Part shown: positions 4,181 to 56,870 of the stretch, piece by piece | Numbering within the stretch: position 1 is the first letter of the stretch | Layout: each line of letters begins with the position of its first letter | NCBI GenBank assembly: GCA_964016885.1 | Contig: OZ024743.1 | Coordinates: 194,928,001-194,992,000, forward strand | Length of the DNA stretch: 64,000 nt | From: Eledone cirrhosa | Taxonomy: Eukaryota | Direction of reading: 5' to 3' | Position numbers and translations under genes: made by a program | Notes under the pieces: generated by a model | Seen by the model: only the letters and a program-made list of their open reading frames with translations | What the model was told of the DNA's origin: nothing | The model's database searches: none

Positions 4181-4739
4181 GATAAATCTACCAAGAGTTT
4201 ACGGTAGTGTCCAATCCGTATGAAGAACTCAATGTAATCCGGATATCATGGAAAGAAGAGATGCAATGAAAAATCACTTTCGGTGAAAGATAAACGGAAT
4301 ACAGAGTCAAGATAAAATATTAAAAAAATAATGAATAAAACAATGAAACAGTTCCTTATATTAAACAAAAAAAGTTCATTATTTAACGATCGTTTCTAGG
4401 ATATATATGTGTTAGAATTGGCATGCATATTCAACAGATCTATGTACAAAATTATAGAAAATTATACAAACTATCAAAATTAAATATACATACCAACACA
4501 TATATATGCCGTCTTCAGAAATAATATTATTTCTGAAGACGGCATATATATGTGTTGGTATGTATATTTAATTTTGATAGTTTGTATAATTTTCTATAAT
4601 TTTGTACATAGATCTGTTGAATATGCATGCCAATTCTAACACATATATATCCTAGAAACGATCGTTAAATAATGAACTTTTTTTGTTTAATATAAGGAAC
4701 TGTTTCATTGTTTTATTCATTATTTTTTTAATATTTTAT
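4178..4739 (-). mobile_element. Non-coding PLE-like fold-back insertion (family B) in (TA)n
   Basis: Palindrome 4312-4525/4526-4739 plus a unique tail 4178-4311. 4178-4525 is near-identical to 55965-56312. Confidence 0.85.
4526..4673 (+). ncRNA. Type I hammerhead ribozyme motif with long helix II (mirror copy 4378-4525 on minus strand)
   Basis: attattt-CTGAAGA-[atatatatgtgtt...aacacatatatat]-GAAA-cgatcg-TT-aaataat. Helix I pairs 7 bp. Helix III is palindromic. Confidence 0.75.
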
Positions 4740-10511: not shown

Positions 10512-10972
10512 GGAAAGTTATATTTAAATTGTTGGGTTACAACTAGTAAATATTTATAACTGATATCAAAGCACTCAACAAGTATTTGGAGTATATTTAC
10601 GATATTAAATAAATGGAAACTATATTTATAAAACCATATTTATTTCATTATATATATTTCAGGGATATCATATTAACAATATGTTATGCCTTCTTCAGAC
10701 AAAATACAATATAGACAGTTTTATAAATAAATAGATTTGACATACCGTTCAACATCGACTTGTATTTGAAAAGTTGATTTGGCAGTGCCAAATCAACTTT
10801 TCAAATACAAGTCGATGTTGAACGGTATGTCAAATCTATTTATTTATAAAACTGTCTATATTGTATTTTGTCTGAAGAAGGCATAACATATTGTTAATAT
10901 GATATCCCTGAAATATATATAATGAAATAAATATGGTTTTATAAATATAGTTTCCATTTATTTAATATCGTA
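10510..10972 (-). mobile_element. Non-coding PLE-like fold-back insertion (family C)
   Basis: Palindrome 10598-10972 centred at 10785 (ggca-g-tgcc), plus a unique tail 10510-10597. TA-flanked. Confidence 0.8.
10864..10929 (+). ncRNA. Hammerhead ribozyme motif (mirror copy 10641-10706 on minus strand)
   Basis: tattttgt-CTGAAGA-agg..catatt gtt aatatg..cct-GAAA-tatata-TA-atgaaata. Confidence 0.72.
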
Positions 10973-11125
10973 TATATATATATATATATATATATTTACA
11001 TATGTATATATATATATATATATTTGTGGAAAGGTTCTATTAATCCAGTATTTAGATTTAGAGTTACATCTAGAAAATTTACCTTCTTATGGTTTAGTTC
11101 GTAGGTAATACTTAGGCCTAGTTTT

Positions 11126-12379
11126 TTGAAGAAACTAGGCCTAAGTATTACCTACGAACTAAACCATAAGAAGGTAAATTTTCTAGATGTAACTCTAAAT
11201 CTAAATACTGGATTAATAGAACCTTTCCACAAAAATAATGAAAATCTTGCCTACATTAGTTACAACTCAAATCACCCCAAATCCATAATTAAATCCATAG
11301 CACGTAGTATATCCCTCCGAATATCCCGCCTATCCTCAAACCTAGAAATCTTTAACGAGCATGCTGACTATTATAATGCAGCATTAAGTAGGGCCGGTCA
11401 TAAAGATAAACTACAGTATATAGTGAATAAGAACAACATAAACAATCCTAGTAATTTCTACTCCAACCGCTCACATAATAATAGGAATAGCTTGACTAGA
11501 CATAGGGTTAGACATGTAACACCTAGAGTAAACGGCCAAAACACTAATAACGTAAACCCTAGAAACAATAGAAGAAACAGACAAAGAAAATACCTATGGT
11601 TCAACCCAATATTCAACTCCTCTATAAAAACTAGACTGCCCTCTACATTCTTTAAACTAATAGATAAACACTTCCCTATCTCGCATAGATATCACAAAAT
11701 ACTCAATAGATCTACTATAAAACTCTCTTTCTCAACAGCAGCTAACATAGAATCACACATACGCAAGATCAACCACAGAAATATCTCAAGTAAATCAATT
11801 GCACCTATACATAAGCACAAACTCATCACAACATCACAACCACAAGCGCATTCAAACGCGCAGCCGCAAAACCCCATGGGGCATATATCACAACCCATTT
11901 ATAACAGGGTACTAAATAGGAATGTAAAAGCTGCACAAAATAGCGCCTCAAACTGCAACTGTCACCTCCCAGATAGGTGCCCATTGGCGAACAGATGTCT
12001 CGATTCGAGCCTGGTGTACATGTGCACTGTCATCTCGGGTAACTCCACCTGGAATTACATAGGATCCACCGCGGGTTCTTTTAAGAAAAGATGGTATGTG
12101 CACAGGCACTCAATGAAAAATGGAGCACTTATGGGTTCCACCACCCTCGCCAGAAAAATATGGGAATTGAAGGACAGCAACGCTAGCTACACTATCAACT
12201 GGTCGAAGTTGTCGGCTGCTAAAACCTATAGTACAGGGATGTCCTATTGCGGGCTGTGTGATCTTGAGCTATTGTATATCCTTAGAAATGTTAAAAGGCT
12301 ACTTAATAATAAGTTAGAAAGATCTATCTTCTGCAGACATAGAATAGCCACTAAATTCATAAGATTCAAACCTCCGTGA
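11126..12379 (+). CDS. PLE polyprotein C-terminal part (RT thumb + linker + GIY-YIG endonuclease), open but 5'-truncated
   Basis: VNFLDVTLNL, SNHP, WFNP, CNC..CPL..CL, YIGST and CGLCDLE..I motifs. 417 aa without stops. Confidence 0.9.
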   Translation: MKKLGLSITYELNHKKVNFLDVTLNLNTGLIEPFHKNNENLAYISYNSNHPKSIIKSIARSISLRISRLSSNLEIFNEHADYYNAALSRAGHKDKLQYIVNKNNINNPSNFYSNRSHNNRNSLTRHRVRHVTPRVNGQNTNNVNPRNNRRNRQRKYLWFNPIFNSSIKTRLPSTFFKLIDKHFPISHRYHKILNRSTIKLSFSTAANIESHIRKINHRNISSKSIAPIHKHKLITTSQPQAHSNAQPQNPMGHISQPIYNRVLNRNVKAAQNSASNCNCHLPDRCPLANRCLDSSLVYMCTVISGNSTWNYIGSTAGSFKKRWYVHRHSMKNGALMGSTTLARKIWELKDSNASYTINWSKLSAAKTYSTGMSYCGLCDLELLYILRNVKRLLNNKLERSIFCRHRIATKFIRFKPP

Positions 12380-29492: not shown

Positions 29493-29550
29493 ATACTATG
29501 ATTATTTCAATGACCGGGTTCCGTATGAATCCGGTGATATCATCAGGTAT
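29493..29550 (-). ncRNA. Hammerhead ribozyme motif (left-arm copy)
   Basis: Reverse complement reads atac-CTGATGA-..accggattc atacg gaacccggt..-GAAA-taatca-TA-gtat. Confidence 0.72.
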
Positions 29551-32436: not shown

Positions 32437-32494
32437 ATACCTGATGATATCACCGGATTCATACGGAACCCGGTCATTGAAATGATCATAGTAT
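32437..32494 (+). ncRNA. Canonical-core hammerhead ribozyme motif (right-arm copy)
   Basis: atac-CTGATGA-tatcaccggattc atacg gaacccggtcatt-GAAA-tgatca-TA-gtat. Confidence 0.8.
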
Positions 32495-38938: not shown

Positions 38939-39143
38939 CATACGAGTAGTGTACTGAATATGTCTCGCTCAATCGCTGCAACAAAAGCCTGGTTGGAATT
39001 CCATATTCCTAGTTCAGTTTAGATGGCTTAGAAAACCGGAAACATTGCTACAATAATTGTATGAATCTGAGAGGGGAATATGTTGAATAAAATCATAATT
39101 AACTCATCGTCCTGGAACTTTTCAGCACTTTCACGTATATACA

Positions 39144-39191
<48 letters not shown>

Positions 39192-39355
39192 GTGTAAATA
39201 TATATATATGTATATATAGATGGAAAAGAGTGAAACGTAAATTGATTTCTCACTCTTAGTACGGCTGATACTTAAATGTAAGTATGACTGTATACGTACA
39301 TACATATATGTATAGAGACGTACAGTAGTTAGTATATATATACGTACATGCATAC

Positions 39356-39418
<63 letters not shown>

Positions 39419-39542
39419 GGTACAGGTTTACCGAACATTTATTATAATGTTCGGGTTGGTTGTAAACAAAAAAACAGCCCGAATTACGCCGTACAGTGTT
39501 CAGCCAACAATCGTCGCCTTCTAGTTCAACACTAACACAGGA

Positions 39543-39585
39543 ACGATGTACTAGTTTCAAGCTTATTAGCTCTCGTCAGCATCGT
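39543..39585 (-). ncRNA. Minimal type I hammerhead ribozyme (intact array copy)
   Basis: Minus strand: acgatg-CTGACGA-g agct aata agct t-GAAA-ctag-TA-catcgt. Confidence 0.88.
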
Positions 39586-40684
39586 ATACCTTCCTGCCAG
39601 ATGATTGAACGTCTGAAAGTATATACATTCTTTATGCATATTAACGGCTGAGCAGCCAAATTTGCATATCGAATGAGTTAGTCGGCCGGGCGCACCGGAT
39701 ACGATAAATGGAAAAGAATGAAACGAAATTTCATTTCTCACTCTTAGTACGTCTGACACTTAAATGTAAGTATGTATGTATACAGACGTACAGCAATATG
39801 TATATATATATATATACATACATGCACACATATATATATGTACGTATGGGTTTACTGAACATTTATTATAATGTTCGGATTGCATGTAAACAAACAAACA
39901 GCCCGAATTACACCGTACAGTGTTCAGGCAATCATCGTCGCCTTTTTGTTCAACACTAACACAGGAACGATGTACTAGTTTCAAGCTTATTAGCTATCGT
40001 CTGCATCGAATAGCTTCCTGCCAGATGATTGAACGTATGTAAGTATATACTTTCCTTATGCATATTAACGGCTGAGCAGCCTAATTTGCATATCGAGTGA
40101 GTTAGTCGGCCGAGCGCACCGAAATCAATAAATGGAAAAGAATGAAACGAAATTTCATTTCTCACTCTTAGTACGTCTGACAATTAAATGTAAGTATGCA
40201 CGTATACAGACGTACAGCAATATGTATATATATACATACATGCACACACATATATATATATAGTCGTATGGGTTTACTGAACATTTATTATAATGTTCGG
40301 ATTGATTGTAAACAAACAAACAGCCCGAATTACACCGTACAGTGTTCAGGCAACCATCGTCGCCTATTTGTTCAACACTAACACTGGAACTATGTACTAG
40401 TTTCAAGCTTATTAGTTATCGTCTCCATCGAATAGCTTCCTGCCAGATGATTGAACGTCTGAAAGTATATACTTTCCTTATGCATATTAATGGCTGAGCA
40501 GCCAAATTTGCATAACGAGTGAGTTAGTCGGCCGGGCGCACCGAAAACGATAGATGGAAAAGAATGAAACGAAATTTCATTTCTCACTCTTAGTTCGGCT
40601 GATACTTAAAGGTAAGTATGTATTTATATGTACATACATATATGTATACAGACGTACAGTAGTATGTATATATATACATACATG

Positions 40685-40766
<82 letters not shown>

Positions 40767-41322
40767 GGTTTACCGAACATTTATTATAATGTTCGGTTTG
40801 TTTGTAAACAAACAAAGAGCCCGAATTAGCCCTTACATTGTTCAAGCAACCATCTTCGCCTTTTTGTTCAACACTGACACAGGAACGATGTAATAGTTTC
40901 AAGCTAATTAGCTATCGTCAGCATCGTATACCTTCCTGCCACATGATTTAACGTCTGAAAGTATATACTTTCTTTATGCATATTAATGGCTGAGCAGCCA
41001 AATTTGCATATCTAGTGAGTTAGTCGGCCGGGCGCACCGAAAACGATAGATGGAAAAGAATGAAACGAAATTTCATCTCTCACTCTTCATACGGCAGATA
41101 CTTAAATGTAAGTATGTATCTATACGTACATAGATATATGTATACAGACGTACAGTAATATGTATATATATACATACATGCACACATATATATATGTACG
41201 TATGGGTTTACCGAACATTTATTATAATGTTCGGGTTGGTTGTAAACGAACCAACAGCCCGAATTACACCGTACAGTGTTCAGGCAATCATCGTCGTCTT
41301 TTTGTTCAACACTGACACAGGA

Positions 41323-41365
41323 ACGATGTACTAGTTTCAAGCTTATTAGCTATCGTCAGCATCGT
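41323..41365 (-). ncRNA. Minimal type I hammerhead ribozyme (intact array copy)
   Basis: Minus strand: acgatg-CTGACGA-t agct aata agct t-GAAA-ctag-TA-catcgt. Confidence 0.88.
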
Positions 41366-42022
41366 ATACCTTCCTGCTAGATGATTGAACGTCTGAAAGT
41401 ATATACTTTCCTTATGCATATTAAAGGCTGAGCAGCCTAATTTGCATATCGAGTGAGTTAGTCGGCCGGGCGCAGGGAAATGATAAATGAAAAAGAATGA
41501 AACGAAATTTCTCACTCTTAGTACGTCTGACACTTAAATGTAAGTATGTATGTATACATACATACAGTAATATGTATATATATATACATACATGCACACA
41601 TATATATATGTACGTATGAATTTACTGAACATTTATTATAATGTTCGTTTTGATTGTAAACAAGCAAACAGCCCGAATTACACCGTACAGTGTTCAGGCA
41701 ATCATCGTCGTCTTTTTGTTCAACACTAACACTGGAACGATGTACTAGTTTCAAGCTATAGTCTGTATCGTATAGCTTCCTGCCAGATGATTGAACGTAT
41801 GTATGTATATACTTTCCTTGTGTATATTAACGGCTTAGCAGCATAATTTGCATATCTAGTGGGTTAGTCGGCCGGGCGCACCGGAGACGATAAATGAAAA
41901 AGAGTGAAACGAAATTTCATTTCTCACTCTTAGTACGGCTGATACTTAAATGTAAGTATGAATGTATACGTGCATACATATATGTATACAGAGGTACAGT
42001 AGTATGTATATATATACATAGA

Positions 42023-42069
<47 letters not shown>

Positions 42070-43080
42070 GTGTGGGTTTACCGAACATTTATTATAATGT
42101 TCGGTTTGTTTGTAGATAAACCAACAGCCCAAATTAGCCCTTACAGTGTTCAGGCAACCATAGTCGCCTTTTTGTTCAACACTGACAAATGAACGCTGTA
42201 CTAGTTTCAAGCATATTAGCTATCGTCAGAATCGTATACCTTCCTACCAGATGATTGAACGTCTGAAAGTATATACTTTCCTTATGCATATTAACGGCTG
42301 AGCAGCCTAATTTGCATATCTAGTGAGTTAGTCGGCTGGGCGCACCGGAAACGATAAATGTAAAAGAATGAAACGAAATTTCATTTCTCACTCTTAGTAC
42401 GGCTGATACTTAAAGATAAGTATGTATGTATACGTACATACATATATGTATACAGACGTACAGTAGTATGTATATATATACATACATGCACACGCACATA
42501 TATACATATATGTACGTATGGATTTACCGAACATTTATTATAATGTTCGGTTTGTCTGTAAACAAACAAACAGCCCGAATTACGCCGTACAGTGTTCAGG
42601 CAACCATCGTCTCCTTTTTGTTCAACACTGACAGATGGACGATGTACTTGTTTCAAGCTTATTAGCTCTCGTCAGCATCATATACCTTCCTGCGAGATGA
42701 TTTAACGTCTGAAAGTATATACTTTCCTTATCCATATTAAAGGCCGAGAAGCCTAATTTGCATATCTAGTGAGTTAGTCGGCTGGGCGCACCGAAATCGA
42801 TAAATGGAAAAGAATGAAACGAAATTTCATTTCTCACTCTTAGTACGGCTGATACTTAAAGGTAAGTATGTATGTATACGTACATACATATATGTATACA
42901 GACGTACATTAGTATGTATATATATATACATACATGCACACATATATATATATGTGCGTATGGGTTTACCGAACATTTATTATAATGTTCGATTTGTTTG
43001 TAAACAAACAAACATCCCGAATTACACCGTACAATGTTCAAGCAACCATCGTCTCCTTTTTATTTATAACTGACACAGGA

Positions 43081-43123
43081 ACGATGTACTAGTTTCAAGC
43101 TTATTAGCCCTCGTCAGCATCGT
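43081..43123 (-). ncRNA. Minimal type I hammerhead ribozyme (intact array copy)
   Basis: Minus strand: acgatg-CTGACGA-g ggct aata agct t-GAAA-ctag-TA-catcgt. Confidence 0.85.
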
Positions 43124-43520
43124 ATACCTTCCTGCCAGAATATTGAACGTCTGAAAGTATACCCTTTCCTCATGCATATTAAAGGCTGAGCAGCCTAATT
43201 TGCATATCGAGTGAGTTAGTCGGCCGGGCGCACCGAAATCGATAAATGGAAAAGAATGAAACGAAATTTCATTTCTCACTCTTAGTACGGCTGATACATA
43301 AATGTAAGTATGTATGTATACATACATATATGTATACAGACGTACAGTAATATGTATATATATACATACATGCACACATATATATATATGAACGTATGGA
43401 TTTACCGAACATTTATTATAATGTTCGATTTGTTTGTAAACAAACATACAGCCCGAATTACGCCGTACAGTGTTCAGGCAACCATCGTCCCCTTTTTATT
43501 CAACACTGACACAGGACCGA

Positions 43521-44043
43521 ATACCAACGTCTCTTCCACTTTACGCGCATATTCGGAGCAACAATAAAATACCAGGAATAACAACCCCAAAACTAGAACC
43601 GGTTGAGGAAACCACCCACTATAAACGGAAAAACTGCAACTGCACAAATCCCAGCAATTGTTCGCCATCGGGTTAATGCTTGTACAAAAATATCATTTAT
43701 CAATGTTACAAAATCTAAACTGGCAATATATAAATATGTGGGTTCCACTTTAAATATTTTCAAGAAAAGATAGTATGTGCATACCCACATGTTTAAAAAA
43801 CCCAATTTAGCTAGATCTAGGGCCCTGGTGAACCAAATCTGGACTCTGAAACGCACTAATATTGAATACACACTACAATAGTCCGTGGTAAAATGTATCC
43901 GTTCATACCGGACTGAAAGACGACCCTGTGAACTATGTTTGGCTGAGGTAATTAAAATAGCGACCAGAAAGGATCTTCTAAATTCTCGGCATGATAGGAC
44001 ATTTAATTGCAAACACAAGGTTCTAAAAACCTTCGCTAAATAA
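43521..44043 (+). pseudogene. Degenerate PLE linker + GIY-YIG endonuclease remnant
   Basis: RKNCNCTNPSNC, then after frameshift YKYVGSTLNIFKKR..QIWTLK..RPCELCLAEVIKI..LLNSR..FNCKH. Contains stops and frameshifts. Confidence 0.82.
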
Positions 44044-44460
44044 AAACTGGACTAGAAAAAGCTTCGATCCCTAATACCGACATTCTATTCAGGATATTTC
44101 CTGTGGCATTAGAACTTTTCACACCTACACAAAGAATTCAATAATATTCAAAACAACCCCATTTTCTTCATTCCTTTCCTCCTTACTCACTATAGCCTAC
44201 TCTTAATATCTACCTTATCTTTAGTCCTTCTCTACCACCATATATGGTAAACATCAAAACCCTAGCTAATAATAATGGTCAATGAATAATTGTTCCACAT
44301 CTCAGCAGACGGATTGATAATGTGAAATTCTTTCCGGCCACTCCCTCTCCCCTTTACTGATTGTATTTCAGGCTAATTTTAATTCATTTACATTTTCTTA
44401 AACGAAAATCTCATTACTGTATTATTACTCGTAGTGAATAGTTTAATTCCACTACTATAT

Positions 44461-44570
44461 GCTTTCTGATGAAGTGTAATAAATAATTAACTATAGCATA
44501 TGATTGAACAATATATATAGTAGTCAGCATATGTAGACAATGTATAATAGAGACAGAAACATGTCAAAGC
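44461..44570 (+). ncRNA. Hammerhead motif with ~83-nt helix II region, in PLE 3' region
   Basis: gcttt-CTGATGA-...-GAAA-catg-TC-aaagc. Helix I 5 bp, palindromic loop III, weak helix II base. Confidence 0.62.
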
Positions 44571-47500
44571 AAATGAATTCATAATCTCCTCACGCCGGAG
44601 TTTTATGTTTCCTGGTGAAATACTTGCTTATATTGATATACTCCGTGATTCTGGCCCTATTTGCCATATTCGCCTGCTTGTATATTTTGAAGTTCTTGAT
44701 ACTACTTATTTAGACCAATGTGTACTGCAGCGTTTAAAATAATATCCCGCACGGAAAGTCATTCGATAAATATTCCGACGGTATGATGATTTCAATAGCT
44801 GTAAATCCAATTTCTGTATCTCTATCACTTTTACAATTCAGATTTTTCAAACCACATGTTCTAATCGATTACAATGTTAACGGAGTTTGCGCAAAACACC
44901 GTTCACTTATCACTTTTCTAATGAGAGGGACAAGTCTTTTTAAAAAAGGTTTTATAATGTGTATAAAGTATATAAAGTATTACCGGTTTCGATGTAGTAT
45001 TAACATTCATCTTATCAAATGTTGAGTATTGAAATAAAAATTAAAAAGAATTAATAGGAGTTAAAAACTAAAAATTAAAGATTTAAAATTAAAATCAAAT
45101 GTTGGAGTAAGTTTTCTTCCATCTTTCTTGCTCAAAACGTGGCTGGAGAATGAGTTCTTGGTGGTAGTGAAGATAGCAGCTGTGTTTCTTCACAGAACAA
45201 AGATTTCTTTTTTTAAACATCCTGTAATTATGTGTTTGTATATCTGAATGTGTTAATTGGCTGGTCAAGAATTCAAAAGGGGGTGGAGAATTGTAAGCTA
45301 GAGGTAAGTTCTATGGCAGCAGCAGGAGCAACGGTATCAAATGTACATTTCATTCCATCTAGAGCATTGCATAGCCCATTGACATGTTAGAATTATTTGT
45401 AATTTTTCCATACATCAGCCAATACTTCTACAATAGCTTTAGATTCCATTGGATAACAAACAATAGATTGTTCATTATTATAACAGTTTTGATCATAGAT
45501 CTTTCTAAATAGGGCCGATCTGCTGTTTAACAACAAATATTTTCCATTATATTGTACAATCAATAATATCACAATCCCTGCCCCCATCCAATTCATGTCT
45601 TAGGACAAAGTGAATTATATTTTTTTTTTTCAAATATATGGAAAATACATTGTTTTAGATTGCATTAAAGTTTAGCAAAGGTTCGATAGGACTTGAATAA
45701 TTTAAATATTGGTTTGTTTTGCTAGATAAAACAAAGCATCTATTTTGGTATCAAATGAAACTTGTTTTGTTCGTGTTTTTCTCAGGGATAATAGATGAGC
45801 AAATGAAATCAATTCGCTTCCGTCAAGTTTTGAAACAGAAATTGATTGCACTATAGCACTTCAACACTTTCATGTATTAAATTATAAAGCTGGAAGTTTA
45901 CTAGAAGCTTTAGTTAGCAATCAATATTTTATCTGTCCCAAACTAGCAGTTGTCGTATATTCTCCGGCAAGATTTGAACGAGAAGACATATGCTCAGTCA
46001 CTCAAGCTTTGACCATTCTCCGTTTTATTGAAACGCAATGTTAATCGCGTTATTTTGTAAAGAATGTTGGATGTGATCTGTGAGAAAATTGGCTGCTATG
46101 TTTAATCTGTTAAACTACACTGTGGAGATCTTGTCATCGAGAGTTATTTTTAAAAAAATGCATTTTCTTTTGCTTATCAGTTGGTGAGATAGAGAAGAGC
46201 AATACTCGTTACCCCGTATATTCTAATGGTCGCAACCTGGAAGGGGTATATTTTCCTTATGTCTGTAAGCTCTTTTGATCTCTTGAAGTTGAGTGAATTC
46301 CGCTAAAGGCGCCCACAGATCAAATATTGGGGTTAAACCGGGTCGACTGTTAATATACAGCACCGGTGTAGATACCGCAAGGCATTTCCTCGGGCAGGAT
46401 ACCAATACCACCAATCGAAAACGTCTAGCTGGTATTTAATTTTCTAGCATGAAAAATGGCCCATGGTGTGGTTTTTTCTCTGGATGCAGTGAGCCGGAAT
46501 GAATAAGGCAAATTATATTGTCATGCGCAATAACGTCTCTGCCAATTCATCGACTCACTTTTTATATTCTTTTATATTCTGAATAAATATTCTGCTAGAG
46601 TCAGCGATAAACTATCCGGGATATACATTCTTCGATTAAATATTTGTAAATTGAGTTCAATTAACCATACAACGACTGTAAATTATTTGTATTTTACTTC
46701 ACCAAGTATATAATATGTCTACGTCACTCGAAAAATCACTTTATTATATGAATTGAAGACTGAGAAAATCATGAACATCACTACATATCGTTATAAATTT
46801 ATGAAATCAATAAACACACGCTTTAACTGACGTTTAATATGAATTATTTCGTAAATGTTATTGTGTTGCATGAAGCTTCAGTTGTGTAAATAGCTAGTAA
46901 CATATCTGAAATGTGAGATGAGACTGTATAGAGAAATCCTATGAATTGAAGAGTGGGCAAACATGATATTAGTTCACCAGTAGGTCTTCATTCTGCGTGT
47001 AAATATTTGTGTTTGTTCCTTATCCGTTTACTTAAAGTCGATAAGTTGATATGTGTATATACTCTTGAATATATACACATTTAGCACCTTCGGTTATATT
47101 GAGTAGGCGTGATAAATTTCTCTTTGTCGGCTTTGCCTAAGGAGGTAGGAATCATTCAAGCAAACTCTGCCTGACTTTAATCACTTGTGTACTTTACACA
47201 ACACAACAAAGTGATGCTAGGAAACGTATTTGTTGAAGATATAGCCAGTAAATTCCTGACCGGACATCTGCTTGCTGAATGAACTTCAATGAATTCCTTT
47301 GCAAACAAAAACACAATAACGATTGAAATAAAAATCTTACCCGCTGTGGTTAATCTGAGAACAAACAAACCACTGGCAGTGGACTCGAGAATTGTTTCTA
47401 AATATACTTCCAGCAGTTTATGAACCCGCTTTATTTAACTGAAATATAGAATAACTATATTGGGTTGTTTACAATCTATTCCCAAAATAGATATTTTTTT

Positions 47501-55841: not shown

Positions 55842-56870
<1,029 letters not shown>

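Follow-up and report, generated by a model that had tools for sequence, protein, structure and literature searches.

The insertions of a short hammerhead repeat in the genome of Eledone cirrhosa end in a way that is good new evidence for the mobilisation of a retrozyme by Penelope-like elements (PLEs): copies stop at two fixed internal 3' sites, and inverted pairs combine one long and one short end. The window analysed here, 64,000 nucleotides (nt) at positions 194,928,001 to 194,992,000 of contig OZ024743.1 (assembly GCA_964016885.1, 3.0 Gb), contains a minus-strand tandem array of this repeat (39216-43520) fused head-to-head to a plus-strand PLE remnant (43521-44687). The original prediction for this stretch took the fusion as physical evidence of mobilisation, produced in one integration when a PLE reverse transcriptase (RT) copied a ribozyme-cleaved repeat RNA together with a PLE RNA. 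The junction is real and that headline reading is unsupported; PLE mobilisation itself is upheld by the family-wide pattern, and the junction is weaker evidence for it than it looked. Junction-level evidence bears on the enzyme that spreads animal retrozymes. PLEs have been proposed for this role on the grounds of co-occurrence and pseudo-long terminal repeat (pLTR) homology (PMC7229834; bioRxiv 10.64898/2026.07.22.740005), and in the portion of the 2026 preprint used here a PLE origin is argued without an analysis of insertion ends, two consecutive units with complete motifs being called 'active' (10.64898/2026.07.22.740005).

Two fixed 3' sites and long/short pairs

Repeat positions are given in RNA sense as q1-q442, where q1 is the first base 3' of the predicted hammerhead cut, and the term arm denotes a stretch of repeat sequence that continues on one strand without interruption. 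Sample 1 was drawn with a 25-nt pattern near the 3' end of the repeat, which has 1124 exact matches genome-wide (control 0); the first 100 of these gave 90 loci, reduced to 86 when four redundant ones were dropped, with 151 arms, of which 150 do not lie at a locus edge. Sample 2 used a pattern selecting arms that end within q10 to -6 (369 matches, control 1); from its first 100 matches 98 were examined, two being duplicates, and 89 were left once eight internal deletions and one further duplication had been taken out. By coordinates, the two samples have no locus in common.

Arms of the repeat have two fixed internal 3' ends, q220-230 and q287, which are about 65 nt apart and followed by (TA)n. 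Of the 150 arms of sample 1, 121 have a long end (q279-290) or a short one (q210-235), and a TA run follows in 103 of the 121; 5' ends are scattered. Arms joined at the 5' end to an inverted arm number 92/151 in sample 1, where a few more were under-called, and 63/98 in sample 2. When both ends of such a pair lie at fixed sites, one is long and the other short in 29/32 and 30/35 cases respectively (59/67 pooled, p=5e-11; 13 and 23 further pairs, in which one or both ends lie or were scored as lying elsewhere, were left uncounted). The family also shows 5' truncation, partial tandems and adjacent inverted copies. A tail at one end only is a hallmark of PLEs (PMC8557442, PMC3846280), and its cause has been found in RT initiation at two internal positions (PMC11167929).

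Two PLE families and one long interspersed element (LINE) served as internal controls. The PLE family of the junction itself (264 matches by its 3' end, 29 loci) has three inverted pairs and all three are long with short, as are three out of three in a young second PLE family. The LINE, of RTE type (10,530 exact 22-mer matches; 30 loci, L369-L398), has TA-rich tails too, so the (TA)n target is not a trait specific to PLEs. It carries inverted 5' partners in 7/26 loci, and these are twin-priming-like: six of the seven are upstream pieces with variable ends, and the long/short pattern occurs in one of seven. In L1-type twin priming, the inverted 5' segment is an upstream, non-overlapping piece with a variable end. 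Pairing of long and short ends thus offers a simple test that separates PLE-type from LINE-type insertion, and the repeat passes it.

From this pattern we consider it very probable that a Penelope-like RT/endonuclease mobilises the retrozyme family, and q220-230 and q287 are the RNA sites that a purified PLE protein should use. Two observations count against a simple version of this conclusion. The junction's PLE family forms inverted pairs in just 3/28 loci, far fewer than the repeat, and ten PLE 3' stretches, from a minority of the PLE families of this genome, match the repeat no better than expected by chance; the mobilising family is therefore not pinned to the one found at the junction.

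Subfamily markers bear on the template. Paired arms differ by 0.13, tandem neighbours by 0.11 and random arms by 0.40, which implies that the two arms of a pair usually derive from a single RNA or a single source, and arms of clearly different subfamily type were found in 5/42 pairs. A monomer circle and a linear multimer are indistinguishable by this comparison, and the end pattern argues that the copied template would be an uncut multimer or closed circle rather than a cleaved monomer.

The array and its junction with a Penelope-like element

The array comprises about 9.7 units of the 442-nt non-coding repeat, nine of roughly full length and a 287-nt part (q1-287). It contains no open reading frame, its stop-to-stop frames all being of low complexity. 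Its 3' end lies at q287, the long fixed end of the family, at 39216, where it adjoins a (TA)n tract (39136-39218). As predicted, the other end starts within about 2 nt of the cut: the match begins at q3 and has a single mismatch, at q6, which the copy L177 shares. The unit nearest the junction carries a putative type I hammerhead on the minus strand (43081-43123, predicted cut between 43087 and 43086), with a 6-bp stem I, a 4-5-bp stem II and a short palindromic stem III. A motif scan finds the motif intact at four of nine array positions (cores 43117, 42675, 41359 and 39579) and degenerate at the five that remain; two neighbouring units (cores 43117 and 42675) both pass the scan, the latter with a helix III change. 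Rfam returned no hammerhead match for the repeat at the gathering score, and in e-value mode only microsatellite-driven microRNA matches among the 150 of 203 listed; the putative ribozyme is called from core motif and stems, not from a family model or an assay.

Rare variants are common to overlapping, non-nested subsets of units across the array (39216-43520), with none private to all nine, and a length above 1171 nt is reached by just one of 121 sampled intact arms of the family. This variant sharing and the rarity of long arms suggest local expansion or gene conversion after insertion.

The adjoining PLE is, as described in the original prediction, a 5'-truncated plus-strand remnant with its own hammerhead. 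Its C-terminal GIY-YIG region (43521-44040) is frameshifted and has a CxCx5C linker, CxxC and CxH, and no CCHH; the hammerhead motif follows at 44460-44571 (plus strand, core 44466, predicted cut before 44566). From these C-terminal motifs, the hammerhead and (TA)n, the partner is probably a Hydra-clade PLE, the remnant containing no RT domain for an RT phylogeny. The protein of another copy of the family, L040, matches GIY-YIG clusters in Atlas (feature matches 0.95-0.97); the PLE pieces gave no Pfam match except one to an RT, below threshold, in L167. That the array runs into (TA)n had been noted in the original prediction; that this PLE does not had not been. Beyond its usual 3' end near 44633, the PLE extends for about 54 nt (44634-44687) into the optional tail of the family, which is rare and about 150 nt long; there it is cut off and abuts, tail-to-tail, a second PLE-like 3' part on the minus strand (44688-45328; a family match at 44920-45328 and an unmatched 232-nt extension), which hides the right-hand target site.

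At the junction the PLE begins at 43521 directly after the array ends at 43520, with nothing between, and the junction sequence occurs once in the assembly. Nearly all other PLE family copies examined (28/29) align over the breakpoint-side stretch at 43521 or further inside. The junction zone (43501-43520, plus strand) contains a 9-mer, 43501-43509, that recurs in PLE family copies, at most 40 nt upstream of the breakpoint, and the two elements overlap terminally by 1 nt at 43520. Within those 40 nt, a run identical to antisense q13-q21 extends over 9-12 nt in 7/17 aligned PLE copies and over 5-8 nt in the others; a shared run of at least 9 nt is expected at 0.2-0.8% of random junction pairs. 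Since q13-q21 adjoins the cut site, a join guided by this homology would land near the cut, and the 9-nt homology can explain the position of the junction. Joins between one repeat and another also carry short overlaps or inserts (19 junctions).

One integration event or two

We mildly favour an origin of the junction in two steps; a single event of whatever kind falls somewhat short of an even chance. The original prediction had called for a count of PLE junctions, and sample 1 does contain three further head-to-head fusions to PLEs (L062, L074 and L125, two of them found by eye). Other non-self head-to-head partners are two RTE pieces in sample 1 and one Helitron-like piece in sample 2. Of about 30 junctions whose partner is neither the repeat itself nor a microsatellite, three involve a PLE, against 0.9 expected at the measured PLE coding density of 2.8% and 1.6 at a guessed 5% (p 0.06-0.2), so that enrichment over local density is not significant. 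In addition, one of the three is proven to be a later, separate insertion: at L062 (extended as L163, 4988-6860), an exact retrozyme dimer lies antisense in an older Hydra-type PLE, with both PLE halves flanking it and a 9-bp target duplication. This insertion was later partly duplicated in inverted form. At L082, read by eye, a repeat insertion inside an RTE copy is accompanied by what looks like an inverted stretch of target DNA about 265 nt long.

The relative ages of array and PLE depend on the method. Over all non-CpG columns the PLE is the older, diverging by 9.8% from its family majority against about 6.3% for the array units (p=4e-4), and it is the longest tip in the family tree (0.127 vs 0.046-0.117); its changes are spread evenly over codon positions (11, 19 and 15 of about 144), with no third-position excess.

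Several results pull the other way. When columns with less than 80% majority are dropped the ages agree (PLE 6.2%, array 5.2%, p=0.24). At this locus, no array within a PLE, or PLE within an array, with its other half left behind was found on either side; with no missing PLE half on the left and no missing part of the array on the right, two steps need a deletion. The junction is not a clean deletion product either, because the repeat continues for 11 bases beyond the 9-mer; the PLE, for its part, has lost 18. Finally, a long tail occurs in 3/6 paired PLE arms against 1/26 other loci (p=0.015), and the PLE arm, having such a tail, was probably born in a pair. This last point is offset by the pairing itself, for array and PLE each have a long end, and long with long is found in just 3/67 retrozyme pairs.

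The same observations can be read as a single integration of two RNAs, in which one PLE complex would have primed one DNA strand on a retrozyme RNA, multimeric or circular and uncut, and the other strand on a PLE RNA, the cDNAs (complementary DNAs) then annealing at their shared 9-12 nt; we hold this only tentatively. It would account for the direct join without (TA)n and for the lack of missing halves, the closeness to the cut would follow from the position of the homology, and the pair-associated long tail and the agreement of the filtered ages are in its favour. Other loci resemble what it would produce. At L074 (L164) the head-to-head partner of a repeat arm is a partial PLE tandem of very recent origin, diverging by 0.6% from its family majority, and at L125 (L167) it is a near-full-length PLE; at neither was the other PLE half found within 8-9 kb. 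At L281 an arm stands head-to-head with the final 91 nt of a different repeated family, hammerhead-like and ending in (TA)n. The 5/42 pairs of mixed subfamily type agree with this reading, but most pairs share markers as closely as tandem neighbours do, and the long-with-long ends, the all-column ages and the unremarkable number of PLE partners, one of them a two-step product, stand against it. A single integration, as originally predicted, is thus left with mixed evidence. A wider proposal is conceivable, if on the doubtful side: a PLE complex would load two RNAs and give rise to the hybrids here and at L074, L125 and L281, the two-site PLE signature would settle the mobiliser, and cleavage would not set the copied ends. 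If true, arms of a retrozyme and of a PLE can be united head-to-head in a single insertion.

Ribozyme cleavage and 5' ends

The other form of single event, RT run-off at the 5' end of a ribozyme-cleaved repeat RNA whose cDNA was then joined to that of a PLE, is the one originally put forward, and it is improbable. What suggested it is the start of the array at q3, since a randomly placed start would fall this close to the cut in about 2% of cases (7/442 positions), and a few pairs of two repeat arms do begin at q1-q2 (L061, L064 and L086). Random array ends genome-wide had been named as a refuting outcome, and mapping the 5' ends relative to the cut gave no peak there. Outside the internal microsatellite, 3/96 ends in sample 1 fall at -2 to +4 against 2.1 expected (p=0.35). 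In sample 2, 27 rows at two anchor-adjacent positions, where chance overlaps collect, were set aside; of the 62 left, three end exactly at the cut (4.4 expected) and 11 at q1-q3 (13.3 expected). Ribozyme cleavage as the setter of 5' ends therefore fails this test in two independent samples, which largely refutes run-off at the level of the family.

Further evidence agrees. In sample 1, 87 of the 121 arms with a fixed 3' end run through the cut site, and the array itself spans nine. None of the 89 near-cut junctions of sample 2 has a PLE coding partner. The missing 5' excess matches experiments in which hammerhead mutants left PLE insertion unchanged and unprocessed RNA was the main in vitro substrate (PMC11167929). 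The cut-site match of this array is likely due to chance. Apparent 5' ends at the cut in an initial sample were rejected, because the query had begun at q3 and inspection shifted several of these ends upstream.

Rare copies have their 3' end exactly at the cut (L201, L208, L210, L224 and perhaps L200, which is L085), and make up 4-5 of the nine true terminations seen when 30 loci out of 118 pattern matches were inspected. These could be occasional priming on cleaved RNA, with TA microhomology and TA-targeting transposons as confounders.

Another alternative, that the abundant TA-associated RTE-type LINE mobilises the repeat by L1-style twin priming and the PLE neighbours are bystanders, is very unlikely. 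The LINE shares TA-rich tails and inverted 5' partners with the repeat, and two repeat arms are joined head-to-head to its pieces; its inversions, however, are upstream pieces with variable ends rather than pairs with two fixed 3' ends, and by eye the 3' end of the repeat is unlike the RTE tail. That the junction is an assembly artefact is hardly credible, for although no bridge over 43520/43521 was seen among the filtered short-read contig pieces listed, it is a unique junction with homology-like features on a chromosome-scale contig, and similar fusions exist elsewhere. Contigs and restriction-site-associated DNA (RAD) reads gave no empty-site allele, and these short-read results are no evidence either way; the junction at 44687/8 is bridged in X1 and X2, from one sample that is possibly the assembly's own source.

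A model for the family and for this locus

The joint explanation that we consider best, and to which we give about even credence, is a PLE-spread family copied from uncut or likely re-joined circular RNA, combined with a two-step fusion at this locus through short shared sequence. Following the mechanism in PMC11167929, a dimeric PLE protein would nick both strands of AT-rich DNA, reverse transcription would be primed at two internal sites in the RNA, and the two cDNAs would be joined at their growing ends by microhomology. At this locus, one element would already have been present when the other arrived, and the cDNA end of the latter, or a later deletion, would have been joined through the 9-12-nt homology, the intervening DNA being lost. 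The array would probably have grown or been homogenised in place afterwards.

Other features of the window

An octamer, ATGCAAAT, at q323-330 (for instance 43189-43196) is present in 40/48 copies upstream of a TATA-like palindrome; it may belong to a promoter of the small nuclear RNA type, like that of newt satellite 2. To the left of the array, a 190-nt piece (38945-39135) lies between two (TA)n tracts and has one weak match among the sampled loci. Further hammerhead motifs occur at 4384-4667, 10648-10922, 29496-29546, 32441-32491 and 56171-56305, some of them close together on opposite strands, and a 424-aa Hydra-type PLE frame is found at 11105-12379.

Comparison with known systems

By its structure the Eledone repeat fits the non-LTR retrozymes of metazoans, its cleavage and circular RNA being predicted only. 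Like them it is short, tandem and non-coding, is poor in GC, carries a type I hammerhead motif and is dispersed in many copies in a genome that also has PLEs (PMC7229834; bioRxiv 10.64898/2026.07.22.740005), and its stems resemble the metazoan type I hammerhead, in which helix I has 6 bp, helix II 4 bp and helix III is a short palindrome (PMC4209133). What sets it apart from retrozymes as described in the portions of that literature used here is that arms end at two fixed internal 3' positions and that inverted pairs combine a long with a short end; nor does it have pLTR homology to the PLE 3' regions compared. We found no junction-level evidence for PLEs in retrozymes, and no report of a long/short end signature in one, in the literature searched, which left subscription journals largely uncovered.

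Similarities with L1-type twin priming extend to an inverted 5' segment, but that segment is not a second copy of the 3' end, and the L1-like pattern is the one seen in the RTE control. Non-autonomous PLE tandems are known in Chlamydomonas (PMC8557442), and Chlamys elements such as MRC1 are, like the repeat, non-autonomous with multicopy head-to-tail insertions attributed to PLEs (PMC8557442); they differ in resembling the 3' end of an autonomous family, a partner not found here, and in belonging to a clade described as being without canonical hammerheads. The junction partner shares with the Hydra clade a C-terminal GIY-YIG domain, the CxCx5C linker, CxxC and CxH without CCHH, a hammerhead and (TA)n targets (PMC8557442), differing in that it is a broken 3' remnant.

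A close analogy is with endonuclease-positive PLEs. The repeat encodes no protein, its tail of about 65 nt is longer than the 30-40 nt reported, and its two sites both lie at UA-rich spots, while the start sites of PAc are described as not homologous to the target (PMC11167929). Yet 5' truncation, partial tandems, an adjacent inverted copy, a tail at one end, AT-rich targets, two internal start sites and the dispensability of cleavage are all features that the repeat has in common with these elements (PMC8557442, PMC3846280, PMC11167929).

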